52,693 nucleotides of DNA, taken from NCBI GenBank assembly GCA_023231475.1, contig JALJEE010001255.1, positions 1-52,693 of the forward strand, read 5' to 3'. Both the position numbers and the translations under genes were made by a program. The DNA comes from Seison nebaliae (lineage: Eukaryota). Every line of letters starts with the position of its first letter. Within the stretch, counting starts at the first letter, position 1. Below the pieces are notes generated by a model. The model saw only the letters and a program-made list of their open reading frames with translations, did no database searches and had not been told where the DNA came from. Positions 861-47,964 of this stretch are shown in pieces.

Positions 861-3800
861 ATGGTCGAAGTACGAGTACAGTGGATAGAAGATGCGAAGG
901 ATGAGGAAAATAATCGATTACCGTTAGAATTGATTAATTTATCTGGAAATCACTATGCTTAATATATACTAATTTTAGTGTCGTGGATTGTGATATTAAT
1001 CCTGAAAACACTCAACTGATTTGTGCCGCAGGAAAACATGTTTTAGTTTATACGATTATTAATGGAGTGATTGAGAAAACTTTGAAAGGACATTCAGATC
1101 GGATAAATTGTGTTGCTTACTGTAAAGATGGAACGAAGTTCGCTTCAGGTGGTCGAGACAGAACTGTCATCATTTGGAAAAAAGATTTAACTCCTCTCAT
1201 CAAATATTCTCATGCTGATTCTGTACAATGTATGTCTTTCAATCCGATAACTAATGTACTTTGTTCCTGTTCTCCAATCGATTTCAACTTATGGCGAGAA
1301 GGAGACGAAAGTATTCATAAAACAAAAATGAAAGATCGGATAACGGCTGTTGACTGGTCGTCGTGTGGGAAATATTTAGCGTTTGGTTACTTTTCCGGAT
1401 TACTCAGTTTACGAGAAGGTGACGGTGTAGAACGCTTCCGAGTAATTGTCAGTCAATCAGCTGATAAAAGAGAATCAAATCCCATTTGGTGTGTTTCATT
1501 TTGTCCCAAAAGGTTTTTATTCTTTTTCAATATTTTCTAATTTTTCCAATTCACACATAAGAGTTCCATTAGCTGCTTATTTAGGAGAAAATCCGGCGAA
1601 TTATGATCTCCCGTAACTTTTATATCTTTCTTCTCTTCTGTTCTTTCATTTCTTTTTTTTATCGATAATTGACTAACTTTATTTATTACATCTTATTTGT
1701 TTATTTATAATTCCCATCAGAATAACTTCGAAGTGAAAATTTTTAATTTATTTTTTTTTAATTTAATTTTTTTAAAGAACTACATTAATTTTCCCATGAT
1801 TTTTTTCATTCCAATTAAGAAATGAAGATATTCTGTTGGCTGTCGGTGTTTGGGATCGACGATTACTTTTTTATCGTGTTGATGGTAAACAAATAGGAAA
1901 AGATCGAATTTTGGATTATGATCCGTGTTTTGTTCGATGGTTCCCTGACTCAGAATTTCTTCTATGTGGGGGGTCAGGTCGTGTTTGTAATATTCATACA
2001 CGTGAAGGTGTCAAATTGGCGGAAGTGGCGAAGCTATCAGGATGGATTTGGAATTCAAGAGTTATAAAAATTAATGATGAACAATATCATGTAGTTAGTA
2101 ACTGAATTTTATTTGAATGATTTAATAATTTTGATTTCATATAAAGGTTGTTGTAAGTCAAGATGGTTCCATCAGTTTGGTGCATTTATTGATGACAGTT
2201 GTCCACAGTATTTATCGAGATCGTTACGCTTATCGAGAGATGTTGACGGAAGTGATTGTTCAACATTTATTGACAGATGAGAAAGTCAGAATAAAATGTC
2301 GTGATTTGGTGAAGAATGTAGCTGTTTATCAGAATAATTTAGCGATCGTGCTAAGTGCAAAAGTTGTGATTTATCGGTCAGAAGAAAAAAAAGCGGACAA
2401 CATGCAGTATAAATTATTGAATAAGATTCACAAAAAAATTGATTGTGTTGCCGTTTTTATTCTGTCCAGTTATCTGATTTTGTGCAAAGTTCCATTTTTC
2501 TTTAAATTTTCATCACTTATTGTGCATTGAAGGAGAGGAAAATCGAATCGATCGATTTCGATGGAAACAAAATTAATGAATGGACGTTAGATAGTAAAAC
2601 GACGTTTGTAAAAATCATCGGAGGTCCACCTGGAAGTGAAGGAATGTTGGTGGGACAACGAAATGGTCAAGTCACTCAAATATTTGTCGACAATTCGTTA
2701 CCGATGGATGTGGTGAAAATTAACAATTATATTCTTAGTCTCGATTTGAGTATGCAACGTAAGAAATTGGCGATTGTCGATAAAACGAATCGTTTATATG
2801 TGTATAATAAAGTGAAGAAGGAATTGTTGTATGAGGAACCGAAAGCGCGAAGCGTTGTATTTAATCAACGGTTCGAAGATCTGATTGCTTATTCATACGA
2901 GAATAAGATCAATGTGAAAATGTATAATCAAGAGCCTAGAGCGGAATTGTGTCGAGGAAATGTGGTCGGTTATATTGGCAGTTACATATATTGTCTTCAC
3001 AATTTCACCATCACCACAACGGAAATGGCGAATACTGAAGGAATATTTTTGAATTTGAATGATAAGAAATTTAAGTTAATTTTTCTTCAAATATTTTTTT
3101 CCAATTAATATTTTTTTAATATAATATTTGTTAAATTATTTTTCCAATTAATGTATAGTCAAGCATATGATATCGCTTGTATGGGTGCGTCGAAGAATGA
3201 TTGGAAGGAAGTGGGAATGCAAGCATTGAAAGGAAAAAATTATATGGTTGCTACTAAAGCTTTCCATCATACCGGCGACTACAAATTGATGTCATTAATA
3301 TCATCGATCAATGATCGTAAACGACGAGGTGAAACGGTGAACGACGTTTTTTTGGGCGATGCATTCGCTTATCAGAACGAATATGATGAAGCAGCAAAAA
3401 TATATCGACGTGCTAATCGTGACGACTTAGCGATGCAAATGTATTCCGATTTACGAATGTTCGATAAAGCCAAAGATTATATAACTGGTGGAGATCAGGA
3501 GAAACATGCTCTCCTCATGAAACAAGCAGAATGGGCATTAAATAATGAAGAATATTTAGTGGCGGCTGATTTATATGTGGCAGCGAAAGAATGGAATCGT
3601 GCCATCGATATAGCAATCCAACAAAATCGCATCGAACTTATTATGGAAATTGTTTCTAAACTTGACAAAGCTGAGACAACGGCACTTTATAAATGTGCCG
3701 AATATTTGCGATTGAATAATGAGAATATTTATGCTGCTGAAGTTTATATCAAATTGGATGATATCGAACAATTGGTTCTTTTAAGAATTGAAGGAAAACA

Positions 3801-5803
3801 ATGGAATGAAGCATTCGCTATCGCCGAACAAAATCCCGAATATAAATCACTTGTTCTTTTTAATTATGGGAAATTTCTAGCTGAACAAGGAAAGTTTGAA
3901 GAAGCTCAAGACGCTTTCCAAGAAGCCGGACGTCGTATTGAAGCGATTAAAGTTCTGACATCATTGATCGATAACGCAGTGGCGGAATTTAGATTCTCTG
4001 ACGCATCTTACCATTATTGGGTACTCTCCACCGAATATACGGACATTGCCCGAGAAAAATTTTTGAAAGGAAAACGAAAAACTGAAGAATTAGTTTTACA
4101 CGAAACCATGACGCATGGAAATCATGGTGGCGATGCATCTCGAACACGATTCAATCGAATGTTAATGTTTCAACCCGATACCGATTATATGAATATGGAT
4201 GATGGTTTTCTTCGAATTTTTGCTATATCAATCAATTCCATTTTACGTAGAGAATAGTGACCATGAAAAATTTAAAATGAACGATTTATTAAGTGAATTT
4301 CGACGTTGTCAACATTATGCAAATATGTATTATGCATATCAACATATTCATGATTATTTGGTTTATTATTTTTAAATTAATGAAAGAAAATAAGAACATG
4401 AAATTCATTAGGAAGGACATAATCCAGCATTGGATGTTCCAACTTTATTTAATGCAGGACGGTTTATATTCCATTCTCTCCTTCTTCAAGATGATACGCC
4501 CATGGGAATTTCACGATTGTTATTTTAAAATTTATTATATACTTGTGTCATATTTTAATTTAATTAATTCACCAATTTCTAGTAAAGTTCTTTATGTATT
4601 AAGTATTGTTGCTGATACGTTGGAAGTGAATAAATTCGGTAAATTTGTTTGCGATGAAATGAAGAATTGTGTCGTCCCAAGAAATCGTCAGATGGACGTT
4701 TCAAACTATATACTCTCCAATACCACGAAACAATTTAATGACCCCGAAGTTTTGAATTGTTTTTTGAATTAAAATTAACATGTTGGAAATTTGCAGGAAT
4801 TGGAACCATTTTGTTACCGTTGTTCTCAAAATAATCCTCTTTTCAACAAAAATTCTAACCGATGTTCCAATTGTCAACAACCGTTCATTCTCTCAATTGC
4901 GTCATTCAGTTAAATTATTTTTCTTTTTAAAAATTTTAAATTTTCTTTTTAAAAATTTTAAATTTTCCTTATAGAAAATTTACCTGTGGTTGAATTTTAT
5001 TTAGAGAAGAGTCTTGACGATCGAGAAGCAAAAAAACTTGCTACCAAAGTACCAGGATCTGTCTTGTCGGAAACAAAGTTGAAAGTGAAGAAAAATATTA
5101 TCGGTGATGGAAATCAATCGAATGATTCGTTCATAAAAAATATGAAAACAAAAAAAGTTATAAATTCTCTACAACAATTTCGTCAGACGAAAAAATATTG
5201 TTTAGGGCAAAATTGAAGTGAATGAAGAGATTTTACAAGAATCTGAACCAGAGACCATTTTTATAAGTGATTGGAAGAAACCAGGTAAATGGCAATGGTA
5301 CAAATTAATAAAGCCAAGCGAACTAGTTACGATGTGTCCGTCGTGCTATAGAGTTAGTCGTTCTAAATAACAATATTCTCTTTTCATCAATACATTATTA
5401 GTTCTTCGATTCGAGCGAATGGGAAACGTTGTATATTAAAAATGATCGATGTCCCTTCTGCAGAAGAAATGCAAAAAATATCGGAAAGAAAGGAACACTT
5501 TCTAAAGACAAATTTGTTAGACATTTCGCTGCAGAACTCAACCAGAATGACATGGGAATAATAAGTTAAATATTTTATTCATTTAATTCTGTTTTTCAAT
5601 CTATCTTGTCAGATGTCCATCCGACAGTGGAACATATTGATGGAGATCGGGAAACTGTATATGGAGAACCTGAACTATCCCAATCAGTTCCTATGGCACA
5701 GCGAAAGAGTGAAGGAATGAATGGAGTAGGAAAAGTGGATAAAGAAAACGTGCCGGAACCTATAGAAACAGAAAATCCATCTGATGAAATAATTGAACAA
5801 TGA
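861..5803 (+). CDS. IFT122: Intraflagellar transport protein 122 (IFT-A core), about 15 exons
   Basis: N-terminal WD40 repeats ([27 protein letters not shown]), [19 protein letters not shown] motif, TPR-like helical region, C-terminal CYRC and CPFC motifs. Frame joins at introns starting 923, 1513, 1613, 2094, 2489, 3075, 4205, 4361, 4519, 4749, 4909, 5157, 5353, 5565; ATG 861, TGA ending 5803. Confidence 0.95.
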
Positions 5804-6751: not shown

Positions 6752-7500
6752 ACTACTATAGTTTTAATTTATTTTTAATGTATGTTAAATGTTAATTATA
6801 TTTTCTAAAAGTTAAATTAAATTTATTTCCTTCGTTTTCACAAACTGGGGAGGTTTATTTGAAATGGGTGAAATGTTTTAGAAGCAAACCTCTTAAGTTT
6901 AAAAAGCTTGTTTAAGTAAACTATTAATAAAACCGATTTCTTTATATTGTAGACTAGCGGAATATGTTACATAGTAAAAATCTAAAGATTATTTTCTGGA
7001 TGTTTAAATAACGCTCATAAATTTCATCTTACACTGTATAGCAAATTTTTTTCTTTATCAACATCAGGAATAAAAAAATTTTGTGATTTTATATTGAAAG
7101 AATTAAGACAACTTATCTTCCTCGTGTAAAATACGACTTATTTGTCAAAGATAAATTTCAGTGAATTAGTTAATTCACACATTTATCAAAGATTTTTTCT
7201 ACATTTTCTTTCTTGTGAAACGTTGTAATGAATGGAGTGAAACTTCAACGAATATCATTCATTTAATTGTGTCAATTTTCAATTATATTCTGAAATATTT
7301 GCGAGGTAACTTTAAATTAATAACGTTTGCGGTAACTTATGTTCTTTTTTCCAAATTACTGTGTGAGTATTTGATTTTTCGATATAATGCTAAATATCAA
7401 ATCGGTTGACCGATTGACCGCTAAATATAATCATATACTAAATATGTTACTATATTAATATTATATATTCATAATATATATGGAATAAAATAATTTTCAT

Positions 7501-7573
7501 GCCCGCTTAGCTCAGTCGGTAGAGCGTGGGACTTTTAATCCTAAGGTCCAGGGTTCGAGCCCCTGGGTGGGCG
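7501..7573 (+). tRNA. tRNA-Lys, anticodon UUU
   Basis: 73-nt cloverleaf: acceptor GCCCGCT/GGTGGGC, D arm GCTC..GAGC, anticodon loop CTTTTAA (TTT at 7534-7536), T arm CAGGG-TTCGAGC-CCCTG. Confidence 0.97.
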
Positions 7574-7580
7574 GTATTAA

Positions 7581-7586
7581 TTTTTT
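7581..7586 (+). terminator. RNA polymerase III terminator (T6)
   Basis: Six T residues 7 nt downstream of the tRNA gene. Confidence 0.75.
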
Positions 7587-9964: not shown

Positions 9965-10108
9965 CTCTCCGAAATTGAAAAAAATGGGTGAGTTCAGCTC
10001 CGAAATTGAAAAAAATGGGTGAGTTCAGCTCCGAAATTTCAGTGAGTTCCGCGCCGAAAATAGAGAAGAGGGTGAACTGAAACGAGGGTGAGTTCCGCTC
10101 CGTAACCC
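9965..10108. repeat. Tandem repeat of a 31-bp unit plus degenerate GTGAGTTCMGCKCCG motifs
   Basis: CTCCGAAATTGAAAAAAATGGGTGAGTTCAG occurs twice exactly, followed by two more GTGAGTTCCGC motifs, ending CGTAACCC. Confidence 0.8.
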
Positions 10109-10433: not shown

Positions 10434-12410
10434 TTACAATTTCATTGAATCGTCGAAGGTTTGAGGCATTTCTTTGTTTAAAGTTTCCGGCAAAAGACCT
10501 ATCATGAGCGCCGCTACAATTGTGCTTATTCCGTAGATTATATTCACCTTCCATAATTGAGGTACCTTGTCCACAATTTGAGGTGAGAGTGCCGATCCGA
10601 TTAATGCGAAGGAACCGCCATATCCGAGAATTTGTCCACGGATTTTTGTGGGAAACAACTCGGAGGCGTGAATATAAATTACGATATATGTGATAGAAAT
10701 AAAAAATTTCTCAAATAGAATCATTACAAATATGGCAATTGAATAATCTCCGTCTGTCGATGAGAATTATAAATTAGATAAAATTCATTTCCAACTTATT
10801 GATCGTCCGTCCTCATACATTAGAATTGCAGTTAAAATGCAGAAAAGTGAAGTAAAAACCAATGACATATAAAATATCACTTTTCTTCCAAATCGATCAA
10901 GAGTGTAGTGGCAGAAGATCGTTGATGGAATTTCAACAGAGGCAGTGATTGCGAAATTGAAATATGGATTAATCTTCGATAATTTATCAGTGTGTAAACT
11001 AATTCCATAATAAACCAAAGCGACGACAGTCCTGAAAATGGACCAAGAAAATTTGTATAAATTTAGAAAATCTTAATAAATTCCCATACCATGTTATCAT
11101 GATGACAGCAATACGAAAAATAATCGTTCGATATCGATTGATATTCGTAAAAATATTTCTAATCGTTCGACGATCAATTATGAAATATGATCTCGTTGTT
11201 TCGATACTGAATGTCGATCCCTTTTTCCCGATAAGTGTCGAACTCTCAATTTTGCAATTCTCACAATGCAAAAGATCAGCAATGTTAATCTAATTGAATT
11301 CAAATGAATACGACTGAAGAAAATGGAAACATTTTTGGAATTTTTTCGGTTGTCGAATAATTGGAAAACTTTCAAAACTTCTTTTTCATCTTTCTTCATC
11401 AATAACCATCGAGGTGATTCCGGTATAAAACTAAGGAGGGAATGAGAGATGAAAATATTGAAAAGATAACAATGATAAGAAGAATAAGAGGAAAATTGGA
11501 ATAAATGCGATTGATAAAATGAATTCCCATTGAGAGTAAGTCAAATAGGAAGTTAAAGCCAAAAATAGTTCTCCAAATATAAATGTATATGCCATTAATA
11601 CTTCGATAAAATTCCGTTTGGTACCGCCAACAATTTCCACACCTAAATTATAAGAGATAAGGAAAAAATTGGAATTAAAATTAATTAACAATATGTCATC
11701 GGTGTCATCCAAAGTCCTTCAAGGAAAATTGACGAGAAAGTTCGACTGATCATATAGAAAAGATATTGACGTGATATGGAAAGACCAGCACAATAAGGTG
11801 CCGAGAACATGAGTATATTGAAGAGGATTAATCCCAATAAATTGAGTTGCAATGCCAATCGTCGTCCAAAATGATCGGACATTGTTCCGGTAATTATAGA
11901 TCCGAAAATTCCTCCAAGAAATAATGCGGTATCTGAATAAGATCTCCAATGAAGACGTTGAGAATCTTGGAAGAAGTTCCATTTCAAAAATAAATTATCT
12001 CGATAATATTTTGTCGAAATTGTCCAATTTGTACAATTAGCATCATCAGTTCCATTGAATTCTGGTATGGAACAAGAACGGTATGGTTCCGCCATGAGAA
12101 ATGTCGACGAGAATGTTTGATAAGCCACAAACAAGAGAATTGGAGATACAAAGAAATAAATTCTTTTCTGATATCCATTAAATTCGGCGTTGAGTATACT
12201 GAAAATTTTGTCAATTCCATTCAAATGATCATTCTCAGAATTGATGCTACTTTTCTTTAATATGATATCTTCCTCTTGAAAATCGTCTCTTCCATCATCC
12301 ATATCATGATGGCCTATGATAATTTCATTAGGACAATAATCATCATGTTCTTTATCGTTCTTATTATTTTCATTGTTATAATAAACTAAAGTCCGTTGGG
12401 AAATCGACAT
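10434..12410 (-). CDS. SLC22-like organic cation/anion transporter (MFS), 6 exons
   Basis: MFS motifs SDHFGRR, IPESPRWL, LDRFGRK, SELFPTKIRG, LPETLNKEMPQT; introns 11688-11643, 11470-11431, 11330-11290, 11089-11032, 10795-10754. Confidence 0.92.
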
Positions 12411-13040
12411 TAAATCATTGAAATTCAATAGAATTCTTATGTTAATGATTTCGATTAAAAATTATATTTCCATCAACGACATCAACATCATGTTGATGAT
12501 CATAATAAAAAAGGAGACAACATCGAACTATGTGTAAGTTTGTTGACATTTTATTTAGGGAAAATTTTTCTCAATTTTCCATTCGAATTCTTCACATACA
12601 AAATTTCAAATTTTATAAATCGTTGACATTTCTATATTCATCTCAAAATCATCCAATCTATTTCTGTGATGATATTAAATTAATCTTAAAAAAGTTAATT
12701 TCAATAAACTTCCTAACATAATTAACAATAAAAGTTCTTTGGAAAAATTGAAGAAATCATCAATGAAATTTTGTTTAAATATTTACCATAACTACCAGAA
12801 CAAATTAATCATGTGACGTTGAAACTCAAATTACTCTTTCCGTCCATTTTGTTGTATGTTGAAGAATGATGGTAAATAAGCGACGATGAGATGAGACGTA
12901 CAAAGTCTAAAATTTTTGTAAGAAAATTTCTCGGAACGAGATGAAACAAAATTGTATAATGAACAAAATTTCAATACAATAAATAAACGAATAACTACAC
13001 ATCATCATTGAGAGAGAGAAGAGAGAGATGATATTAAATA

Positions 13041-16000
13041 ATGACGGAAAAAGATAATGAAAATGACTTAACAACTGAAAAAGATAAAGTTCAAACATTT
13101 AAATTGATTTTAACTGTTAAAACTTCAAATTTGTTTCAGTCCCAGAAAAATTTTATTTTAGCAGCTGTTTTATTAAACGATGCTGTTCATGGAAGACATC
13201 TGGTCTTCGAAGAGACCAGATTAAGGTTTCAATTTTTATGTTTGATGGTCTTAATTAAATTCTCAATATTTTTAAGAAACTATGTTTTATTGAATAGTAA
13301 ATTGATGGCATGGATTTCATGGATTAGTATTTTGGCTTTATTCGTCCTTACCATCTATGAGAATCCAGCCCTCTATCCAATCCATATGGCGGTTTTTTAT
13401 TTGCTTTATTCATTTAATTTATGCATTTGAGATTTAGATACCTCTAGCAATCGAGTTCATTTGTTTATCAATCCAAATGAGCATTTATTTCCTCTCATTT
13501 CGATGCCAACATGATTCCATGTTTTGGAAAGACAAGAAACATGTCGGTTTCCTTATTGTTTGCTTGGTTGGAAATTTATTTTCTAAATTATTTAATATGA
13601 TAATTATAATGATAATTTCTTTTGTTGTCTAGTTGACATTGGTGGATATGATTGCGTATATTTTGTGTTATAGTTTGAATTTGTCGGTACAAGTTCGTAT
13701 CACGAGAATATTGAGAATAACATTCATTCTGACACATATAAAAGCCAAAAACGTTATAGTTTTTTATACATATCGTATATAGAATGTTTCATCATTTTCG
13801 TTCAATTAGTTGAGATTCGCATTCCGCAACATCAGACAAACAATTCCTGATATACTTCACCTTTTAATTCTGATTTTTTGTTCAATTTTGTTCTTCACTT
13901 TATTATCTTTCCAATTATTCCGATCAAAGTTACTAATGTGAAATAATTCTCTAAATTGTTCAATTTTTTCCCAGAAATTATTCTTATGCCAATGGAGAAC
14001 CATATTTCCGGACATTCATCGATTCATTTTGGGATTTATATGTTCTCCTTACCACCTCCAACAGTCCCGACGTTATGTTAGTTTTTTTTATTTAAAAATA
14101 GTTTCTGAATACTCTTTTGTTTAGGGTACCCGCCTATAATCATCGACGACTATATATTCTATTCTTCATCTTATATATCGTCATCAATCTCTACATATTC
14201 ATGAGTATTTTCTTAGCTATCGTTTATGAAAATTATCAAAAACATTTTAAAGTTTCTTAATTGAATTTTTTTTTCTTAATGCTCAAATTATTTTTGAATA
14301 TTTTTCACATTTTCAGGTGGCACTTCACGATTATGTTCTGTATAAAAGAACGAAATTGGATCGAGCATTTTCCGTTTTAGCTGAAAGGAAAGAAGATATT
14401 TCTGTGGAGAAAACATCGAACAATCATCGAACATCGACATCATTAAAACGAAATCGTTATTTTCCATTTATTATCATTATTTCCATCACCTGTTCGTCAG
14501 ATACGTCTTCTCTGATTGCTAAACCGGCAACGACCGATTATTTATCATTGAATAAAGGATTCGTTAATCCATTGGTGGAGGATCAATGTGAAATGGATAA
14601 TGATAAAGAAAATGATCAGTCTGGTCATTTGGTCATTTCTTATAACGATTTCCTTCGATTAATGACGACAAGAAAATTGATTTCCGGTTTCTTTGCCGGA
14701 TGGTTTAATTGGCGGGAACTTGAAGAGAATTCCACTGATTTTGAAACACGTTAAAATTTCCTATTCTTTTATATTTGGTCATTTGGAATTTTAGGTGGGA
14801 ATTACGAAAAAATTTTGACTTTAATGAGATGGCTAGTACTGAATACGACTCAAGATGATTACATAAGTTATTTTATTTAATTAGAAAAAAATTTATAAAA
14901 TACTTTCATAAAAATTTTATAAAATAATTTCTAGCTAAAAATGAATTTATGAGATTGGCAGATATTATCAATGTCCGAATCAGTTCCAAATCGGAACGAT
15001 CACATTGGATCCGAGATTGTTTACCAGCCATGTATGATTCAGTTGTGTCTCGATGGTTAAGAAAATCAGTCAGATCAAAGTTGTTTTTTGTTTTCCGATA
15101 ATTTGAGACTTTTCATTTTCAAAGATTATTTCGACTATTTTTCGATATTATCATATTATTGAACGGATTATTTCTTGCGTTGAAATTGGATGAAGCTGAA
15201 TATTTTTTCCTCTCAATTTTCACTTTAGAACTTTTACTCAAATTATATTCATATGGATTCGATGAATTTCGACGGAAATTTTGGAATATGTTTGTCATTT
15301 TCCTTCACATTTAATTTTCATTTTTTATGTAGTTTCGATCTCTTCATCGTCATAACAGCTTTGGCCGCTGTTATCATCGAACATACTCAAGCAAGTTTAA
15401 GTATTTTAGATATTATCCTCATCATTCGAATGTTGAGATTATTGAAAATATTCGGATCCATTAAACGGTTTTCTATTTGTTATCTTTGATTCACTAATCG
15501 TCTCAAATAGTTTCCGTTTAATTATCATGACACTAACCAATATTGCTCCGTCCATCCTGACATATATCGTCGTCTTATTAGTTTAATTTAAAGAAATTGT
15601 TTAAAAATTCCTCAAATCGATTTTTATAGACATTTTATTATATTTATGCAATCATCGGAATGGAAGCTTTCAATGATTTCTTATCGAAACCAGATAAACA
15701 TTTCAAACATATGTGCCTCAATCCCAAATTGAATGGAAGTGATTTTTGTAAGTTATTAACTTTATTCTAAAACTTTGTTAAAACTTTAAATTTTTTTAAA
15801 ATTTTTAAATATTCTAATTCTCAGGGCAAAATATTATAATAGTAATTTCAACAATATTCTTCAATCGTTCGTCATTCTATTCGAGTTGACAGTCGTCAAT
15901 CAATGGCATGGTTTCCATTATCTCTCCAATTATTATCTCTAAACTAATTTCTGAATAGTAATTACTTCTGGATTTGTTAAATTAACTTCGAAATGGGCAA

Positions 16001-16546
16001 GATTATATTTCATAACATTTCATATGACAAATGTTCTCCTAATTATGAAGTTTAAAGAAACGACTGTTTTTTCTCTCATTCACCTTTCCAGTATATTTAC
16101 AGCATTCATCTTAGATGCTTTCCTGATGGAAATAGAATTGAAACAGACGATCGCTGAAGATCAAATACAGAAGCAGATCATGAAATTGGGCATTTATTTG
16201 GACGAGAACGATTCGACAGATGCATACACCTTCACCGAAATCTTCGAGATTATTAAGAAAATGTTGAAGAAAGGAGAAGAGGGTGGTGCTGGTGAAATAT
16301 CATCGAACAATAAATCAGGAATTAATGATCTTGTTCTCCAAATGTTAAATGATCATCAGAGGCAAATTTTAGATTTGACATTGAACGAAGCGATGAGATT
16401 TCACATCAGTAAGAAAAGTTACTTCTTATCCCGAAAAAAATTCCCTTTAATTATTTCACAATCCTCCTCGCTTCCTTCAAGGTCATTCTCGTGTTGAAGT
16501 ACTTTTACAAAGATTATTCGAAAGTTCGTTAGACGAGAAATCGTGA
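13041..16546 (+). CDS. TPCN3: Two-pore channel 3, about 20 exons
   Basis: Two 6-TM repeats; pore 1 LLTTSNSPDVMVPAY and pore 2 FELTVVNQWH match TPC3 rather than TPC1 or TPC2; S4 IIRMLRLLKI; C-terminal VEVLLQRLFE. Confidence 0.92.
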
Positions 16547-33826: not shown

Positions 33827-33860
<34 letters not shown>

Positions 33861-33979
33861 GTAATGGTAATTGGTTACCATCAAATTCGTTTTCGAATGA
33901 TATTTTCGATCAAGAAAATTTCTATCATACTCTATCACACCATCAACAACAACAACAACAAAATAAAATTGATATTTAA
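30581..33979 (+). CDS. Single-pass Ig/FN3 cell-surface receptor, possibly Ihog/CDON/BOC-like; intronless
   Basis: Signal peptide, one I-set Ig domain (FSLSC..VHWLHND..DNGNYTCVISN), degenerate FN3 region (HITETIVND..EVILKWNI, LKKLHKNSIYRIEI), TM helix VIFSIGMSLLGVMLIMIGVIGI, long N/Q/T-rich tail. Confidence 0.85.
33805..33871 (+). repeat. Coding (AAC)n(AAT)n microsatellite encoding poly-Asn
   Basis: Trinucleotide runs in frame within the receptor tail. Confidence 0.9.
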
Positions 33980-34062: not shown

Positions 34063-35630
34063 TTATTCATTTTCAATAATTATATTTTTCCTTCGATGAT
34101 ATGAACATTCGCCGTTCTTCACTTGATGGCAACACTTCTTACAAAACTTATCAGTACATCTTTCCGAGAGAGGATTCCCTAGACAATTTCGACATTTCTC
34201 CAAAATTATTTTGTTACTTTTCATCTTGTTCTTATTTGATCGTTTGATCATTCGTTTTAAGCGTTTCAACGAATATTTGCTAAAATCTTGAATCGCCAAT
34301 TGAGACAATTCTTCCGACGGCTCCTTATGTAATTTCCGTTTCATTTTCAGATCGCTGAGAACTCGATCGATTTTTTCCTTTCGAATTTTCTCTTTATCTT
34401 TCTCCTTCATCGTCGGCCTTTCCATCGAACATTGACGATTTTTCGAATGTTTCTCCAGCACATTCACCGCTTCATAATAGACATAGGAAACGTCTTTGTC
34501 CTCCTCAATTTGAGCGTCGAATTCATTCCTAATTTTCTTCATTCCATCCGCCAAATCTTGAACGGTATTGCTCTTGGCAATAATCGATCTCATTTCAATT
34601 GGTTGATGTTCTAAACTGACAAACGACATTTATTAATTAATTACATTTTTTTAAAATTTGAAACACTCGTTGTAATAATTTGAAAAGATGTGCTCGAGTA
34701 ATCGACAATGACGATTTATATGGAATTGCAAAATTGTACAAATATTCTTCTGCCATTGACACTAAATTTAGTTCGTTTTTCGAACATTTTTTAAAAATTT
34801 TGAAATTGTTTAAACTCGATTCTAATTAACATTGGCGTGACAATAAGTGAAAATCATCAAACCTGCAACCATCACACCATCACAACCGGTTTCTTTCAGA
34901 CATCGTTCGATATCATCAAAATATTGAATATTTCCGTTCCCGTACACTGGAATAGATAATGCTTTTCTACCAAATGATTAATGATAAATCAAAAAGTTGA
35001 ACTTGATGGCACTAATATGGTGCCAGTCTGCGAGACCGGTATTCGGTCCTCTTTCTTCTCTCAATCGTCCGTGAACTGTTAACATCTTATTCTCGTTAAA
35101 TTTCCTCTCAAATCGAATTTTAATTTGTTAACTTTAATTCCACAATTCTCCAACATCTTCGCATATTCTACACTTCGTTCCACCGTTTCCAATCGTCGAA
35201 TTTTCGCCGTTACAGGAACTTTCAATGTCTTCGCTGCTTCTGTTAACATCGACCGTACCAATTCGACATTCTCTTGCAAATATGCTCCGTAATTTCCACG
35301 ACGTGCGATTCGTTGAGGACATCCAAGATTGAGGTCTACTCCATCGATATTATATTTTTCCACAATCTTTCCCGCATTCACAAATGTCTCCACATCATTT
35401 GCACAAAATTGCACAATGAGTGGGCGATCGGTGATTCCGAGTGAGTTGGCGAGTTCTTGTTCTCCAATGAACTGTTCGAATTGATATGTTGTATCATCAA
35501 CGAATAATTTCGCATGTATCATCGGCGTGTAGCATAATTGACAATTGTATTTCCTTGAGATTTGGCGCCACGCCAGATCGCTCTGTTCGACCATGGGTGC
35601 GAGAATGAGTCGATATTTGGAGAAATCCAT
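34063..35630 (-). CDS. DUS1L: tRNA-dihydrouridine(16/17) synthase-like, 5 exons
   Basis: [59 protein letters not shown] motifs and a C-terminal Cys/His cluster ([17 protein letters not shown]); four GTT introns. Confidence 0.95.
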
Positions 35631-35723
35631 AAAAATTTAAATTTTTTAAAAATTCTTCTAAACAAATTTCTTTAAATGAAAGAATATAATCAGATAATAA
35701 ATGAATAAAAAAAAGAATAAATT

Positions 35724-37682: not shown

Positions 37683-38363
37683 TTTTGAACGAAATTTTAT
37701 AAATTATTCTTCTTTTTTTTAAGAATTTTTTATTCTTATGAAATTTCTACGAAAATTTCTTCGTTTTATTATTAAACTTCATGAACTTAATCTTTAAATG
37801 GATTTTCCTCCATTTTCATTTAATTTATTATCAAATTAATATTTGTTATTCGATTAAGTTCGGCTCGTCTCCACAACGTGAAAGAGCATCTGGAGACGTA
37901 ACATCAACTGGAAATTGGAAGATTGGATTGGAAGAGAATACGAAAATTTTCATTTTTTAAATTTTCAGAAAAGTCAAAGAAATTTCTTAATTTTATTAAA
38001 CGTTTTTTTCTTGTCTTTCATCAAATTTCATACCTATTTGTTAAGAATGAGAATAAATTTCGAGAGAATCATGAAAAATTAATGGAAGTCTATTGTTCCT
38101 CACTTACGTCTTATGAGACAGCTCACAATTCAATAGATGTCTTTAATATGAGTGTTCGAGTTGTGTAATTTGGTTTAAGAAATAATTTTAGAGAGAAATA
38201 AAATTGTGAGGAAAAGTTTATGAATTTTTATCATCATCAATGCACCAGCTGCTATTGAATATACTGGAAATAGTTTAATTTATTTTGTGTTATTAATAAA
38301 AAATTGTGAGGCAAAAATCTCTCCATTCCAATCAACTGAGAGAAGAGTTCAAATAAAAATTTA

Positions 38364-41300
38364 ATGAGAATGAAGTTCCAACATTTCTTTCTTCTTTCCC
38401 CACAAATAAATTCCTACAAATGAAACGTGTTTATAGATTGTTGTACATGAGAATTTATAACATTGAGAAACAGAAATTATCTTACTACATCTTATGGATA
38501 TCGATTGGAATATTTTATTCCATCGTATTCGCTGTCGGATATATCGGTTTTTTGTCTTTTAGAAATTTATTTGAATTCTGTGTTTGTAGCTCCACCAATG
38601 TTATTCTCACGATCGTATAACGAATCGAATATGTATCCAAAACCGTTGAATAATTTCAGTGTTTATATTTTATTTTGAAATTAATTTGAATTTGGTAATG
38701 TTCTTAGGGTCCGTTCACTGTCAAATCACCGTTAGTATCGATATTTAATCAATATATGTGGTGCTATCTCGAATTCGATTTGGATGGGAAAAATAGTTTA
38801 TTATTTTTTCATTTAATTCAATTATCAAATTTTCATTATTATAGTAACCGAAAATGAATCACATTCGATAAATATTTCTTATCAATTAGTTGGAGTTCAA
38901 GAACTTCCTGACTCGTCTCATGATCATGCAACGTCATTACAAACTGATAAAGTATCAAATCGAGCTATGCGAGACGAAAATAATGAAACAGATCGATTTA
39001 TGGAAGGAAAGGAAAATAAAAATTCTTATGAATCGGTCGATACAATAACGAATTATTCTCATGATAATGATCATTATGAGAAGAGTGTCCATACGTCAAT
39101 AATCTCCCAAATCAACATAGAACGTCATCGTTTAACGGTTGGTCATTTTATTTAAAAATCGGTCAAATGTTCGTGTTGAACGTTGAAAAGTGAAAATAAA
39201 TGAATTTTCATTCGTTGAGGAAAGTGAAAAGTCGAGAGAGATGAAAGTGATGCAATATCACTGGGCGAAAAGGAGATTGATCTTTAAATGATTATGAAAA
39301 GGAGATGAATTTTTGAATGATTATGAAAGAAGAGATGAATATTTATATAATGATAGGAGAGGGGATGAGTATGATTATGAAAAGGAGAATAGATCGATTA
39401 TCAAAATTGATGATGATGATGATGATGATGTTTCGCGTAGACAAAAAATAATTGTCCGTTCAAAATATTTTCGATATGGAAATTATTGTTCGGAGAGAAC
39501 ATATAAAGAAATATCTCGTTGATGAAAATCGATTGAATCGATTGAATGCGTTGCATTCATTTTCCTGCAATACAGAAACGGCAATCCGTCATTATTTCTA
39601 TTTTCGCAAGCAGCCAACTGTGACCATAATGGTCAGTCAACTATATGAGAGAACGTCATCATTTGATTTATTCTTATTCTTATCTTCAACATTTCTTTTT
39701 CAATTCAATACAGCGACTCATCATTATCTCATAAAAAACTTTTATTTCGTAACTAATTCTCAAATTACAACTTGAATATTTCAATCGACTATGAGCTTCT
39801 ACAGCATGAGTAGCGATAGTGATATGTACCAATATGGTGGAGGCAATCCGGGGGGCGGATATTCCAGTGGTGGAGGGGGCGCACCCGTAGCACAACAAGC
39901 AGCACCCGCTGCTATGCCTGTGGCGAGAAGTACCGGTGGTTACGCTCCGGCTGGATACAATGCCGGTGCCACTTATGGATATACACAAGGTGGAAGTTAT
40001 GGTGTGGTTCCTGCTAGACGTCAATTGGCACCAAGGCGACAAATGGTCCGTGCTAGAACACCACCACCAATAGTCCAAACTAGACGTGTCCGTGCCCCAA
40101 CACCACCACCACAATTAGTGGAACGTGTGGTAGTTCAACCATCTCCACGTGTCATTTTAAACATTGTGGAAGAACGACCAACAACTCCTCCTCCACAAAT
40201 CCGAAATAGAACTGTTCGAGAACCGGCGAAAGGACCACCAATTGTACGACGACAAGTCGTTCGTGTTCCACCTCGTGGCAATTATCAATATGGCGGTTAT
40301 CAAGAAGCACAAGGAGAAGCGTATGGTTCTGGATCATATTCCGATTCTTACAGTAGCGACGATATGGGAGGTGCTTATGGTGGCGGCTACGAAGTTAGTA
40401 GCGGTTATCAACAACAACAACAACCTCAACAACCGTATGGAGCTGGTTATGGCGGTTATGGTGGGCAATCGTATGGATATGGTGGGGGATATGGTGGAGG
40501 ATATCAATAAAGAAATGAAAATGAAAATTATTGACTGAATTTTTAACGATAATTTGTTGAACAATACAAATATTCGAATGATACTTTCCATGTACATTTG
40601 ATGTTGATTTCATTCTTTTTTTTCCTGTTTGTATTTTCTTTTATTGTTCATGTGATATTCGTCTAGATTAGCACATCGCTTCCTTTCCTTCGAAAACATA
40701 TAATTTAAACATACAATCCAATCACTTGATTGAACATTTTTTTTATTGTTGCTTCATCTCTTATGGATTACTGACGAATGTTTTTCATCGAATATTTTTA
40801 TATGTTTCCTCCCCATTATTTTCATTCAATGTTCTAATAAATGGCAAATACTTCATTCCATTTCTTCTTCACTTCTCTGCTCAATATTCTCTTGACGAAT
40901 TTGACTTTGATAGTTGAATGTTTGTTTTCATCTATTTGAAGGTTGTCTAGTTCATTCTTATCTTTCAATTTCATCGAACTCAACCTCTTCTTACTTATAA
41001 CTTATAAGTTATAACCACCTTAACCTTACTTAAGATATATCTTAAGTAATTCAAATTAGTGTAAATTTTTATTTACTTTTCAATATTTTTGTTGATTTTA
41101 AATGACGTCAGAAAGTTTAAGTTTTTTTTAATTTCTTTCAGTTTTTTAATTATCTAACGTGCGAAACTATCGAGATTGTTTTTATGTTATTCTTTTATTA
41201 TTCAAATATTCTCGATTTCAACTGATGATTCGGAATTCTGAAAGGAAATGAAAAAGTTTCAATTATTTTATGATTCTAATTCTCAAGTGTCACCATTTAC

Positions 41301-44300
41301 TTCGATCGATATGATGAGGAGAGTAGATGAGTTTGACATTAGGAGTGTGAATAGATAGATGGATAATTTTCCATAGGACGACGTTCTTTGATGAAAACCG
41401 TTAAAGTTAGGAAGTGGATGGATGAAATGAAAGAGAAAGTTGATATAAAAGGGAAAAGGAGAGAATCTATTAAAATTGCTAATCATCAAAAAAGAACGAT
41501 GACCTAGTCATGCTAAGAATGTTTGTACGTGAAATACGGAGTTGTCAGTTTCGTATGAACGAGTTGAATGAGAGAGAATAATTATTGTCATTTGAAACGA
41601 GGCCAGTGCACGCTACAAAGCATCTTTATCAATTTGGTAACTAGGCCATCGCCTAGTTGGGAAGATGCATCTGATCAATCAAGCAAATCAATAATTGAAA
41701 ACATCTATAAATATCGAATTGAATCCCACAGTTTTTCATTACAATCCTTTAAACATAAACCCATCCACATCTTAGTTGCCATATTCCCCGTTCCACAAGC
41801 AAAATGAGAAAATTGTATGGAAATCACGCTTCATCCACTTCCGGACAAATGGACCATCGAACTGTTCAAGGAATCTCTTCGAAACAACAGAGAAATGCGG
41901 CGGCCGCCGCCGCTCAAGCAGCTGCAACTAACCAAATGATGATGCAGGCAAGCATGATGCAACCGATGATGATGCAGCAACCACAAATGCAATGTGCTAA
42001 TGGTCAATGTTCGATAATGCCACAAATGATGCCACAGCAGAATGCATGTGCATTTGGTGCATGTCCCATGCCATTTGGTCAATCGCCGATGTTGAACGCG
42101 GTAGCACAAGGAGTTCCACGTGCCGAAGTTGGTGCTGACATGAGCGGAGCTGCCAGTGCCGCAATTCCATTGACAACGCCATTTGCACTTCAACAACAAG
42201 CACAACAACAAGTACAACAGCAAGCACAACAACAAGCATCACAAATGCAACAACAGCCACAGTGGAATAATTCGCAATGGATGATGAATAATGGAATGTC
42301 AGGCTTTTATTAGACGGAAACGAAACGAGACAATTCTCACAATTTCCCTGATAATAATTATAATAATAATAATAATAATAATACAATGAACGAATACACA
42401 AATACGAGTAGAATAGAATAATTATTATTTAAACTGATTAATTACTAATTGATTGTATATTATGTTGAATTATCCTGCTTTTTTAACTCTTTTTTTCATT
42501 TCATTTGAAAATTCATTTATGAATATGTGAGACATGAATGGAAGACATATCAACGTCTTTTATTATTTAAATCTTTCTCTATCGTTTTTTCCTGATCGTT
42601 TCTCTTCATCTGTTCCTTCTTTTTTTTTTCAATAAATTGTGAATTATAATTCTCATTTTCCCCTCTTTTTTATTTATGAAAATCAAAACAACTCAACCAT
42701 CATCCAAATGAATGACATCCACTGTCTAATGATGATAATGATTCACTTTTGACATGTCATACTCATTCTTATGAGTCGAATAAAACACCTTAGCTCGACA
42801 CACCACATAGATGATGAGGAAGAGTAAAAATGCAATCACAACTGATGTAATAATTATTCCTACCAACATTATCCATAGCGCATGATTGGCAATCGGCTTC
42901 ACATATTCTCGAACGACAATCATTCGTTTCTCAACATCTGTCACATTGCTTCCTTTCATCATCGCACTCAACGGTTGTTGAACTATCGTTTTGGGTTGAG
43001 GTATCTCAATTCGGATATGTCCCTTCAATTCACTCGATTCTGGATTACCACTCAACTTTTTCTTGATGATTCTATGAAAGTATTTCTCAATATTCTTCTC
43101 GATCTTCTTCCGTCTCTTATCTAACGTTATCGAATGTTCGTCATTCAGATTAAAGTTGCCTTCGTAATGATCCAACATAAAGGCGATCAATTCATTTTTA
43201 TTCTTCATTCGTTCCTTCAACTTCTCCTCACAATACTTATAAACATTTTTCCTGAATTCTGATTCATGTTTTTTAAATTTTTTCAATTCGTGACTCGACA
43301 ATTTATCGGGATAGTCGGAGAGGATCTCGTTGGAAAGCAAGACACATATGGATCGCTGTCGTGCCCACTGATTCGTGTCTATATTGCTCTTTATACTTTG
43401 TCCGATCTCCATTCTCAACTCCTTCTCGTTATCCTCTATAATCTCCACACCTCTCTTACGTGACGGTTCCAGCTCATAATTGTTATCGTTCCCCATGGGA
43501 TAATAAGTAAAGGCGAATTTAAAACAGAAAACTATAATAATACGGTGAACACTATTCATGATTTGTAATGACAAAAGATTTTTTGAAATTGTAAAATGAA
43601 ATAGAAAATAGTTGAAAACTAAAATAGAATCGAAAACGTCACTAATTTATATATAAATTTCTCTTTCATTATTATTTCGTTCATTAGAATCATCGAATTC
43701 TACTCTTCAAATTGAACTCACTAACTTACAACTATTATTTGTGTCGAGTCAATTTGACGGAAATCAATTCACAAAATCATGAAGCACAACCAGCGAGACA
43801 CATTCAATTCAAGTCATTCCACATTAAAGTTCAATTTTCTTCTTTCTAATTATTTCACATTATTTTCATTCCAGTTTCAATATTATACAAAAAGTTTCAC
43901 CGAATTCGAAATCGCCTATCGTATAGCCATAATCATTATAACTTTCATCGTTCTGGTTATCATTCTTTTAATTTAATTTTAATCTTATTTTTTTTACTTT
44001 AAAATTAGTGTCTCTATTGTAATAATATTCAACAATTTCCTTTACTAATTTGGAATTATGAACAGAAATGGATTCTCTTCCTTCTCGCCATGCAAATCAT
44101 TGACGCAAGTTCAAATTTTTTCATTATTCGCTCATCTTTAATATCTCTTCATCGCAATTTCAGATCCTTTATATGAATTAAAATTCATTTATCATCATCA
44201 TTTCATCGCGATTCTTGATCAACTGTCCCATCAACTTTTCTTATTCTCTATGGGAATGTTCTGGCTTACACTACTCCATTCCTTTATGAATGACGATCGT

Positions 44301-45100
44301 CGATTTATCACCTTCTACTTTCCCAAACTACTTCTCGCCACTTTCATGTTTCTCGTCATTTTTCTTTTGCAAGAACAAAACCTGAAATCTTACCATAAAT
44401 CATTCTCTTCCATCAATATGTATACATCTTCCTTATCTTCATGGCGAGCCACCATCGTTAACATTTATTTATCATTCATTTACCTTCTTTTTATCTTTTA
44501 TTTCATTTTAGTTATTGATCATTTTGGTGATCACTTCTATTATTATTTATGTAACATGGATATTTATTCTAACCATCATCAATATACGCTATGCAAGAAA
44601 TTTCAAATATACCAGTTATTTTTTTATTAATTTATTTTTATTTATTTCTTCTCATCCAAAAGATAAACGAGTAAAATGGGCAATTGGTACATTTTCCATA
44701 TTCTCCTTGAACATTATCATTTATTTATTATTCCATTACGAATATTTCGTGCAATCATTGATCGGATTTACACTTCCAACATTCTATTTCGAGTCGTGTG
44801 TTCAATTCCTCTTTCCAAGAGCGTCCACGAATTTCCTCGTTATTCTTCTCGTCTACATCTATTCGCCATGCAAAACACCAAAAGGTTTCACCTTAATTTT
44901 TTTCCTCTCCTTCTAAATATGTCTAAGCTAAGGAATATCTTCGAGAAGAGATTTGTATGGATCCATTGGAATGGACAAAAAATCAATTAGATCAAATGTA
45001 TCCACTAGTGAGGGAAGACGATGATGACGACGAAACATCGATTGTTACTAAACTTTGTGATGATTCGGATAAAGAATATGACTTTGGGAAGAATAATTAA
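38364..45100 (+). CDS. TMEM181: Transmembrane protein 181 (Wntless-related), about 12 exons including a 4550-nt intron (39138-43687)
   Basis: N-part MRIYNIEKQK..VGYI and GPFTVKSPLVSIFNQYMW; C-part FTEFEIAYR, WNYEQKW, FYFPKLLL, VYIYSP and acidic tail. The first mini-exon (38364-38374) is less certain. Confidence 0.85.
39285..39392. repeat. Degenerate minisatellite (ATGATTATGAAAAGGAGA core)
   Basis: Three recognisable copies of the core inside the large TMEM181 intron. Confidence 0.6.
39791..40510 (+). CDS. Gly/Tyr-flanked, Pro/Arg/Val-core protein (239 aa), nested in TMEM181 intron
   Basis: Intact ATG..TAA ORF, much more GC-rich than surroundings; GGY-rich ends and core repeats RARTPPP, RAPTPPP, RPTTPPP; no signal peptide. 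Confidence 0.92.
   Translation: MSFYSMSSDSDMYQYGGGNPGGGYSSGGGGAPVAQQAAPAAMPVARSTGGYAPAGYNAGATYGYTQGGSYGVVPARRQLAPRRQMVRARTPPPIVQTRRVRAPTPPPQLVERVVVQPSPRVILNIVEERPTTPPPQIRNRTVREPAKGPPIVRRQVVRVPPRGNYQYGGYQEAQGEAYGSGSYSDSYSSDDMGGAYGGGYEVSSGYQQQQQPQQPYGAGYGGYGGQSYGYGGGYGGGYQ
41706..41713 (+). promoter_or_regulatory. TATA box for the Gln/Met-rich gene
   Basis: TATAAATA followed about 25 nt later by initiator-like ACAGTT, ~100 nt upstream of ATG 41804. Confidence 0.55.
41804..42313 (+). CDS. Gln/Met/Ala-rich low-complexity protein (169 aa), nested in TMEM181 intron
   Basis: Intact ORF with elevated GC, own TATA box, two CxxGxC motifs (CANGQC, CAFGAC), C-terminal SGFY. Confidence 0.85.
   Translation: MRKLYGNHASSTSGQMDHRTVQGISSKQQRNAAAAAAQAAATNQMMMQASMMQPMMMQQPQMQCANGQCSIMPQMMPQQNACAFGACPMPFGQSPMLNAVAQGVPRAEVGADMSGAASAAIPLTTPFALQQQAQQQVQQQAQQQASQMQQQPQWNNSQWMMNNGMSGFY
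42726..43559 (-). CDS. Uncharacterised type I membrane protein, antisense-nested in TMEM181 intron
   Basis: Intronless ORF; hydrophobic N-terminus (IIIVFCFKFAF), charged helical middle, TM helix ALWIMLVGIIITSVVIAFLLFLIIYVVC, short tail. First ATG at 43559. Confidence 0.85.
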   Translation of the reverse strand: MNSVHRIIIVFCFKFAFTYYPMGNDNNYELEPSRKRGVEIIEDNEKELRMEIGQSIKSNIDTNQWARQRSICVLLSNEILSDYPDKLSSHELKKFKKHESEFRKNVYKYCEEKLKERMKNKNELIAFMLDHYEGNFNLNDEHSITLDKRRKKIEKNIEKYFHRIIKKKLSGNPESSELKGHIRIEIPQPKTIVQQPLSAMMKGSNVTDVEKRMIVVREYVKPIANHALWIMLVGIIITSVVIAFLLFLIIYVVCRAKVFYSTHKNEYDMSKVNHYHH

Positions 45101-45534: not shown

Positions 45535-46974
45535 ATGAAAAGAATTCCAACTCATATCGATCGTTATCGTAATTTACGAGCAATTATTAAATCGTTGAAA
45601 AGTGCCACATCGGTGTATGGAATACGGGACCGTTTAATTGAATTGAACAACATTTTGTTACAGAATGAACATAATCGATTTGTCGCACAAAATTCGAATA
45701 TTATCGGTTGTTTGAGTCATTTGCAAAATGTGAATTCATATCGATTGGATAACATCGAGATAAGTTATGAGATAAACAAATCTCTAGCACTCTTGGGCTT
45801 AACTCAACCCAAAAATAAGAAGAGTGTAAATGTCCTTTCATTGGATGGTGGTGGTACTCGTGGAGTGATCAGCATTCAAATTTTGAAGGAATTGCAACAT
45901 CGATTAGATGGACGGAAGATCGAAGATGTCTTTGATATCGTTTGTGGCGTTAGTACTGGAGCTATTATAGTTGCACTAAAATTTGCTAACGGACTTAATT
46001 TAGATGAGTGTGAATCAGCTTATACGGAATTTGGTAAGAAGATTTTTGTACGTGATCGAATGAGAAGTTTAAATAATATGTTGTGGACACAAGCTTATTA
46101 TGATTCAAATAATTATGAGCAAATCCTTCAAGAAATGTTTGGTGAGAAAACGATGTTACAAACATCGAAATGTCACAATTCTCCCAGATTAGCTTTGTCG
46201 TCTACGAAAATTTTGGGCCGATCAGCCGAACCATTTCTCTTCCGAAATTACGCCATTTCTCCTTCGTCATCCGTCGAGAATTGGTATGATGGTACATGTA
46301 ACGCGAAAATATGGCAAGCAATTCGAGCGGCAACCGCCGCGCCGATTTATTTCGAAGGATATTCATTCAATTCAAATTATTTTGTTGATGGTGGAATCCT
46401 TTATAATAATCCTTGTTCTTTGGCAATTTTCGAATGTAAAAAATTGTGGCCGACATATCCGATCGGTTGTGTCGTATCAATCGGTACTGGACGTCCACCT
46501 TTGACCAGACCGAAAGATAAATTAAATGAAACTTTATTAAGTCGAACTCTGGGAACAGTTTCTGGTATAATTTATAGTGCGACAAATACGGAGAATGTTC
46601 ATTCTATTCTTCAGGATTTGTTGCCGAGTGAAACTTATTATCGTTTCAATCCGATTATGTCGAAAGATTTCCAATTGGATGATATCGAAGAATTGGAAAA
46701 GATGAAGACGGAAGCGATTGAATATATCAATTTGAATAAAATGAAATTTGATATTTTATTTTATTCGTTGGAGCGAAGAAGTCTTTGGAATCTTCTCAAT
46801 TTCTCCGAAGATCTCGTCAATACTTTACATTCGACTTTGTTCAAATTCTCGTTATTTATGCTCGATTATCATACACCGACGACTTTACGAGGATTCTTAA
46901 CTGCCACAAAGAATAGTTTGGTTTTCGTTTTAACGAAATTAAAGAATTTTATTGATTTGTTGAGAAAGCAATGA
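45535..46974 (+). CDS. PNPLA8: Calcium-independent phospholipase A2-gamma (patatin family), intronless
   Basis: LSLDGGGTRG glycine loop, GVSTG nucleophile, DGG motif, PFLFRNY, WQAIRAATAAP, YYRFNP. Confidence 0.93.
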   Translation: MKRIPTHIDRYRNLRAIIKSLKSATSVYGIRDRLIELNNILLQNEHNRFVAQNSNIIGCLSHLQNVNSYRLDNIEISYEINKSLALLGLTQPKNKKSVNVLSLDGGGTRGVISIQILKELQHRLDGRKIEDVFDIVCGVSTGAIIVALKFANGLNLDECESAYTEFGKKIFVRDRMRSLNNMLWTQAYYDSNNYEQILQEMFGEKTMLQTSKCHNSPRLALSSTKILGRSAEPFLFRNYAISPSSSVENWYDGTCNAKIWQAIRAATAAPIYFEGYSFNSNYFVDGGILYNNPCSLAIFECKKLWPTYPIGCVVSIGTGRPPLTRPKDKLNETLLSRTLGTVSGIIYSATNTENVHSILQDLLPSETYYRFNPIMSKDFQLDDIEELEKMKTEAIEYINLNKMKFDILFYSLERRSLWNLLNFSEDLVNTLHSTLFKFSLFMLDYHTPTTLRGFLTATKNSLVFVLTKLKNFIDLLRKQ

Positions 46975-47084
46975 ATACGTATGAATTGGTTGATTGATCG
47001 ATGAGAAAAGGAAAAGAAATACGGAAAATAATGGAGAACAAAATTAGATTTATTTTAAAATATAAAATTTCTTTTAATCAATTT

Positions 47085-47964
47085 TCAATCTTCGATCTCT
47101 TTGATTAAGTTCGATAATCGATTGAGTGCCTTCCCAATCTTCTCTTCTTTCACATTGATATCTTCACCGTTCGTCATTTCATTATTTTCCAACTCATTCT
47201 CATTCAAATCATTAACAAGTGATTGTTCATCTTTCACTAATAAATTGACATCTTCATCTGTTAATGGAACGAAAATTCCTAATTGATTCTTTAAAAATAA
47301 TCGATAATTGATCAAATCAATCGAAAATCGATAAAAATTAAAACTTTATTCTTCAATAATTGTGGACTGGGACGATAGAGTTGTGAATCGACTTTTGATA
47401 ATGATGATTTCTTTCTGATATTTCTTATTACATTATCATCATCATCATTGTTATCAATAGTATTCTCATCATCATCATCATCATCATCTTCATCGTTTTC
47501 AATTTTTTCTTTTTTCGTTTTTAAAAGTTTCATTTGATTGACAATATCGTCATAGTAATATAGTCGTTTCATTCCGTTAATGTTCGCTTCCACTTCCTCC
47601 TCATTGATCATTGAATTTAACATTTTGTCCGTCTTCACATCTCGATCTAATTCTTCTTGTAACTTCTTCAATTTCAATTCGTCGTTCAACACATTGTAGA
47701 AACTTCTCAGTTTAACTAAATAATTGAAATCTTCTACAAAATAATTTATTAATTAATTAAATTACTTTAAAATTATTTGGAATAATTAGAAACTTGTAAT
47801 ATTTTCGATTTCTTCAATTTCTTTCTCGTTTTCCACGATCGGCATTAACGATCGATATGGTGAGAAGCTGTCTGTTGTCAATGTTTTATTGGGGAGAAGG
47901 AAAGATAAGTGCTGTACTAACGTATGAAATGGAGAAGTGTCAAGAATACAGCGAACTGTCTCAT
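47085..47964 (-). CDS. Acidic secreted protein with dibasic sites, 4 exons
   Basis: Three GTT introns join MRQFAVFLTLLHFIHS (signal peptide), FSPYRSLMPIVENEKE.., and ORFs 47312-47692 and 47085-47315 in frame. Confidence 0.75.

Follow-up and report, generated by a model that had tools for sequence, protein, structure and literature searches.

In a contig of 52,693 bases from Seison nebaliae, a marine seisonid rotifer (NCBI taxonomy: Rotifera, Pararotatoria, Seisonidae) that pairs with Brachionus in a quick IFT122 tree (support 99), almost every intron that could be placed begins with GTT. We refer to this whole stretch as the window. Few signals in animal genes are as well conserved as a purine at position +3 of the 5′ splice site (the donor), a G at -1 and a G at +5, and it is their alteration in Seison that concerns us here. 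All donor counts were derived from gene models and homology, not from reads. The working set comprises 52 introns in six genes on both strands, and splicing them out gives open frames (50 introns checked).

The IFT122 gene (861..5803, plus strand) contains 13 introns that all start with GTT in the database model, the donor at 2094 being ambiguous with a GTA at 2091. The two-pore channel gene (13041..16546, plus strand), which matches Pfam Ion_trans twice, has 19 introns, again all GTT. Two of its donors lie next to sequences that a conventional spliceosome should favor. At 15748 (15748..15757, plus strand) there is a textbook GTAAGT, in another frame and four bases ahead of 15752, the GTT donor that is used and that 25/26 two-pore channel homologs chose. 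Likewise, an in-frame GTAAGA at 16409 (16409..16423, plus strand) precedes the used GTT donor 16418 by nine bases; 13/26 homologs chose 16418 and none chose 16409. Textbook GTAAG sites adjoining real donors thus appear to be unused.

The SLC22-like MFS transporter gene (10434..12461, minus strand; start uncertain) was defined by a parse with flat donor scores, which gave an open frame with Pfam MFS_1/Sugar_tr matches and five introns. Four have GTT donors (11689, 11470, 11330 and 10795), and the fifth (11032..11089, minus strand) is the one well-supported intron with a GTA donor, with a parse margin of 10.9 and a next-best choice that is also GTA. The donor at 11089 retains both -1G and +5G, as would be expected if a mismatch at +3 needs compensation, although this is one case only. 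The DUS1L-like gene (34063..35630, minus strand) has four introns with GTT donors at 35132, 35002, 34862 and 34664, the last two placed by hand. Exons 1, 2 and 3 match successive parts of Pfam Dus (positions 1-153, 154-179 and 182-214, respectively), and exon 4 has no Dus match. The unnamed gene (47085..47964, minus strand), known from the blind parse described below and without a Pfam match, has GTT donors at 47793 and 47344, and its first donor is either GTT at 47921 or GTA at 47917.

What is probably a single TMEM181-like gene was recovered in two parts. Its 5′ exons (38420..39137, plus strand), from the blind parse, have GTT donors at 38547, 38661 and 38796 and a weak TMEM181_GOLD match (E 0.018). 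The 3′ exons (43688..45100, plus strand), from homologs and the parse, enclose six short introns, all GTT. The database model of this part begins at 43558, and its first intron, with GTA at 43591, follows a doubtful start. The two parts may be joined by a 4.5-kb intron (39138-43687), for which a GTT at 39138 could serve as the donor. This putative intron holds intronless open reading frames at 39776-40510 (plus), 41759-42313 (plus) and 42726-43646 (minus), none with a Pfam match; an Atlas search with a nested frame returned no match.

Some further observations concern the IFT122 locus. Positions 1562-1612, inside a 307-base intron, could be a cassette micro-exon with a GTA donor at 1613, picked by 1/12 homologs. 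Contigs from sequencing runs X1 and X2 span 700-4850 uninterrupted, show no joints and look like DNA, whereas runs X6 and X7 contributed no contig. Beneath the main contig lie low-depth X1/X2 contigs, about 85-93% identical to IFT122, that could represent a second strain, a related species or a paralog.

Three kinds of evidence support the donor counts. Searches with three exons each brought up a S. nebaliae protein of 99-100% identity. Database proteins P0001 (IFT122), P0121 (two-pore channel) and P0272 (3′ part of TMEM181) mapped exactly onto the window and gave 13/13, 19/19 and 6/7 GTT donors, respectively. Because database models may stem from a predictor trained on the species, we wrote a motif-free, flat-splice aligner that demands nothing but GT/GC...AG and was queried with non-Seison homologs only. 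By homology alone, 13-26 of 26 homologs exactly recovered 16 of the 19 two-pore channel introns, and for IFT122 the corresponding figures were 9-12 of 12 homologs and 9 of the 13 introns; every intron recovered in this way starts with GTT. The two-pore channel introns missed were the first and two in a divergent linker. Over both genes, 25/27 majority calls from homology were GTT, and the homology-supported tier of the working set is 25/25. Lastly, an ab initio gene parser blind to positions +3 to +6 was run on four genes outside its training. Unedited, this parse gave 19/25 GTT, and in the remainder of the window it found no additional well-supported spliced gene. To form the working set, terminal or doubtful parse calls were dropped (12480 GTC, 47917 GTA, 43591 GTA, 43638 GTC and 39138 GTT), and for DUS1L a GTT call and a GTG call, both of low margin, were swapped by hand for 34862 and 34664 on the basis of similarity.

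In the resulting set, 51/52 introns begin with GTT and one, in the SLC22-like gene (11089, minus strand), with GTA. GTT makes up 39.7% of all GT trinucleotides in the window, which puts the probability of such a count by chance at 1e-19; against the 50% T of intron bodies it is 1e-14. A sequence-only reading of this DNA had already put GTT at about 56 of 58 donors in seven hand-spliced genes, and its central claim is borne out, down to the four donors it quoted (923, 2489, 13567 and 15290), all of which are where it placed them. It had counted 19/19 for the two-pore channel, 4/4 for DUS1L, 4/5 for SLC22, 13/14 for IFT122 and 11/11 for TMEM181. It was also right that AT richness is insufficient, as T rises from 50% in intron bodies to about 98% at +3. 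We consider it very probable that this GTT code is genuine and holds across the genome.

To compare other eukaryotes with the same aligner, we turned to a metagenome scan, which yielded 25 IFT122 loci. Of these we aligned 19 and kept 8 that were non-redundant as controls, with GC-donor calls excluded. None of the 13 loci placed in a quick, unfinished tree groups with Seison and Brachionus, so that the comparison does not extend to other rotifers. The 71 donors of the controls were 41 GTA, 15 GTG, 9 GTC and 6 GTT, a GTT share that differs sharply from that of Seison (Fisher p 1e-26). Even a control locus with 36% GC and introns mostly of 60-130 bases (L006) had 0/14 GTT. Of the 11 IFT122 introns of Seison that could be mapped, 8 match control-locus introns in both residue and phase, and the orthologous donors at those positions were GTT in 1/14 non-redundant cases. 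These introns are therefore old ones whose donors were converted in place, and an invasion by introners is unlikely.

The loss of the usual signal extends beyond +3. Position +4 is split between A and T (22 each of 52), and +6, with 22 T, is at background. The +5G was found in 9/52 donors versus 41/71 in the controls, a small excess over the 6% seen as background in introns (p 0.003), and -1G in 13/52 versus 47/71, which is at coding background (p 0.38). The sequence-only reading had thus correctly noted that +4 to +6 lack an AGT consensus. In place of G, the exon end is rich in A (29/52 at each of -3 and -2, p 0.001; 26/52 at -1, p 0.02), and AA ends occur in 20/52 introns versus 12.6% expected (p 2e-6). 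AG precedes GT in 4/52, GURAG occurs in 0/52 and GTTTG in 2/52. Phase-0 introns after Lys, Glu or Gln codons follow an A in 7/7 cases versus a G in 28/34 controls; since A already ends 81% of such codons in Seison, this indicates relaxation only.

A second feature is a U-rich tract a short way into the intron, with U in 38/52 introns at +9 and 40/52 at +10. Over +9 to +13, 173 of 260 bases are T (67%), versus about 50% elsewhere (scan-corrected p 0.0005). The tract is present in both tiers and all six genes, remains significant in the homology tier alone (p 0.0006) and is absent from the controls. The introns measure 36-84 bases, apart from the one of 307, with a median of 48.5, the shortest being 34967-35002 (36 bases). 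Acceptors are TAG (29), CAG (13) or AAG (10); the 52 introns show no clear polypyrimidine tract or branch motif, with five branch-point-like motifs not enriched, and the 3′ signal may also be simplified. GTRAGT is neither enriched nor depleted in the window (31 vs. 25.7 ± 4.7), and the Val codons of the spliced genes show no clear avoidance of GTT.

The GT...AG ends, which restore open frames matching homologs, fit the major class, although the GURAGU-like donor of that class, with its -1G and +5G, is absent and a purine stands at +3 in 1/52. Minor (U12-type) donors carry a long RTATCCT-type motif. No such motif was found, and the listed donors hold no information past +3.

How might such a donor be read? 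In known systems the donor pairs first with U1 small nuclear RNA (snRNA), then with the ACAGA box of U6 and loop 1 of U5, with U6 C42 on +5G and G44 near +3 (PMC9803359; PMC8283771). The simplest explanation for a U that is near-fixed at +3 and an A that is near-absent is an A at the facing position of U1, as in a U1 candidate from Entamoeba. Indeed, standard U1 pairs best with an A at +3, which occurs in 1/52 donors, and the GTAAG sites at 15748 and 16409 are bypassed for a nearby GTT. We propose that the GTT start is read by a U1 whose base facing +3 is A, with help from a TIA-1-like protein and from U5 pairing, a model that, judged from the donor sequences, seems to us about evenly poised between right and wrong. 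U1 would pair with G+1, U+2 and U+3, often also with A-2, leaving -1 and +4 to +6 almost free of information. Because those positions hold so little, the short helix would need help. A TIA-1/Nam8-like protein on the U-rich tract, just past the stretch from -3 to +8 covered by U1, could stabilize it, and intron definition across some 50 bases may add to this. When the donor passes to U5 and U6, the uridines of U5 loop 1 would pair with the A-rich end of the exon. U+3 would then lie opposite G44 of U6, so that no alteration of U6 is required.

The A-rich exon ends and the U-rich tract from +9 favor protein-assisted recognition of this kind. At weak donors, TIA proteins bring in U1 by way of U1C and of U-rich tracts farther downstream (PMC2766253), and loss of +5G in human donors is accompanied by more A at -2, -3 and -5, read by U5 (PMC8283771). 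Seison donors also form a mean of 3.98 Watson-Crick pairs with standard U1, compared with 5.79 in controls, and 4.94 when A stands opposite +3. Several points weigh against the model, however. An Rfam scan of the window returned no snRNA at the gathering score or at E up to 1, so that the machinery is deduced from the donors. The gain in pairing with an A-bearing U1 follows by construction. A single U1 change leaves the loss of +5G unexplained, and Entamoeba retains +5G. The Seison tract also lies nearer the donor than the polypyrimidine tracts of PMC2766253, which are centered at +15 to +25. Finally, most lineages with atypical donors, including yeasts, Giardia, Trichomonas, Thecamonas and Micromonas, retain standard U1, although their changes are at +4 (bioRxiv 10.1101/2022.06.08.495308).

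This last point also counts toward a different account, which we regard as possible but less credible than the A-bearing U1, in which U1 is standard and U at +3 is set later or by proteins, through a U+3-U6 G44 wobble replacing the +5G pair, an altered PRP8/SNRNP27 pocket, or altered U1C/LUC7. From the B-act complex onward, G44 of U6 is in contact with +3 (PMC9803359). Roy and Bowser (bioRxiv 10.1101/2022.06.08.495308) point out that an unchanged U6 ACAGA can find a better partner in GUUUGU, and the loss of +5G demands a change at the U6 step anyway. A standard U1 would nevertheless bind the unused GTAAGT and GTAAGA next to real donors, and one would expect a preference for -1G or +5G to remain, whereas -1G is at background.

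The intron-poor red alga Cyanidioschyzon merolae is reported to have lost U1. A comparable situation in Seison, with the U1 small nuclear ribonucleoprotein lost or no longer base-pairing and proteins plus U5/U6 picking donors within very short introns, strikes us as unlikely. It would fit the shortness of the introns, their lack of a branch or polypyrimidine consensus and the absence of both donor classes described in PMC9803359. Against it, the U-rich tract starts at +9, directly past the stretch that U1 covers, and Seison is unlike the algal case in having intron-rich genes and alternative splicing, described for its lamins (PMC10125929). A broader statement, which we offer tentatively from the donor pattern and hold to be less likely than not, is that the Seison spliceosome has dropped both known donor classes and no longer relies on U1/U6 pairing past +3, with U1 either rewired or reduced to a particle driven by proteins. 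Its cues would be the three letters GUU together with exon ends rich in A and the U-rich tract.

Quite improbable is an artefact or local effect, in which models trained on the species and hand splicing favored GTT in T-rich DNA, or this contig alone is unusual. Its force comes from the points that tell against the code itself: every count comes from one contig and from gene models that lack junction reads, the database models being probably the product of a trained predictor; the unedited blind parse was less uniform than the working set; 11/12 IFT122 homologs pick the GTA at 2091, one codon from the annotated 2094; and 12/12 open a GC-AG gap at 4048, where the database model has a coding insertion. 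We also encoded the exon and intron lengths of five genes in the window as 17 strings and compared them with at least 19,906 S. nebaliae transcript-alignment rows in the accessible part of supplement 2 of PMC8351084. No fitting row was found, although a control string was matched; gaps in the rows viewed are mostly 40-90 bases, like the introns here. Even in the worst case, with 2091, 1613, 43591 and 47917 all true GTA donors, 50/55 would be GTT. The homology-only calls, the AT-rich, short-intron control locus without a single GTT donor, an intron T content far below that at +3, and the agreement of six unrelated genes on both strands all argue against an artefact. An introner-type insertion burst, or a U1 register shifted by one base (GTT-RAGT), has next to no credibility and is largely refuted by the ancestral intron positions with their non-GTT orthologous donors, by a mean pairwise intron similarity of 16.5 versus 15.8 after shuffling (the best real pair, 50 vs. 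33 shuffled, being a low-complexity A/T stretch), and by the lack of RAGT at +4 to +7 (+4R 25, +5A 16, +6G 2 and +7T 23 of 52).

Composition, aligner bias, a shifted register and introner invasion were thus each tested as explanations and each fails. For the sequence-only reading, the idea of a rewritten code in a divergent major spliceosome finds support in the sequences; its suggested change in the U6 box is dispensable. The reading was also incomplete, having omitted the loss of -1G, the A-rich exon ends, the U-rich tract from +9 and the Entamoeba precedent.

Other features of the window include four long intronless open reading frames among intron-rich neighbors, at 30581-33979, 35724-37703, 45535-46974 and 49755-50447, corresponding to an Ig-domain membrane protein, GPAA1 (Gaa1), a patatin phospholipase and nanos, respectively. 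A tRNA-Lys(TTT) gene lies at 7500-7574, and short degenerate repeats, four with GTGAGT, at 9970-10100. A near-perfect hairpin at 52295-52380 has an unbroken stem of 25 pairs (-51.9 kcal/mol, z -15); its weak Rfam microRNA match is far under the cut-off, and it could be a new microRNA-like or a transposon-derived element.

Taken together, the donors point to a real and strong change of donor code in an animal, and probably an unreported one. Our literature search found no GTT donor code reported for Seison or any animal, in coverage that takes in few subscription papers and so leaves absence unproven, and on introns and splicing the accessible text of the S. nebaliae genome paper (PMC8351084) speaks only of compact genes. 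If the change is as it appears, a spliceosome and its thousands of donor sites can evolve together while the introns are kept; mass intron loss is the route proposed for Entamoeba and yeasts. Seison would then offer a natural test of which step (U1, the U5/U6 hand-over or proteins) sets donor specificity. In practice, a gene finder whose training set comes from other animals will splice genes of the Seison lineage wrongly.

Known systems each share part of this pattern. Known donors fall into two classes, AG//GU with strong U5 pairing and //GURAG with strong U6 pairing (Parker et al. 2022, PMC9803359; Shen et al. 2024, PMC11347140), and Seison resembles them in that information on the exon side may offset weak U6 pairing; it fits neither class, its exons ending in AA, not AG. 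The donors assisted by TIA-1/Nam8 (Gal-Mark et al. 2009, PMC2766253) likewise match U1 poorly and have a U-rich tract a short way into the intron, but they belong to a minority of introns, whereas the Seison tract seems general and peaks at +9/+10; a role for TIA in Seison is argued by analogy. Altered donor recognition in animals has a parallel in the GA-AG introns of Eurytemora affinis and Oikopleura dioica (Frey and Pucker 2020, PMC7072748), with a U1 variant proposed for E. affinis. In those species the change is at +2 and affects at most about a tenth of introns, whereas in Seison GT-AG is intact and nearly every intron is altered at +3.

The closest likeness is to Entamoeba, the sole published lineage with U at +3 found in our literature search, in which donors read GUUUGN in 97-98.5% of introns and a U1 candidate carries ACAAAC (Roy and Bowser, bioRxiv 10.1101/2022.06.08.495308). 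Both combine a near-universal U at +3 with major-class GT-AG introns and an AT-rich genome. Entamoeba, however, is intron-poor, with a strict motif of six to seven letters, GUUUGU(U), and keeps +5G. Seison is an intron-rich animal in which GUU alone is fixed, +4 is divided between A and U, +5G is scarce, exon ends are A-rich and a U-rich tract follows at +9; the strict GUUUGU, with +4U and +5G, was not found. Judged from its donors, the change in Seison would be one of the Entamoeba kind taken further, with +5G and -1G lost in intron-rich genes.

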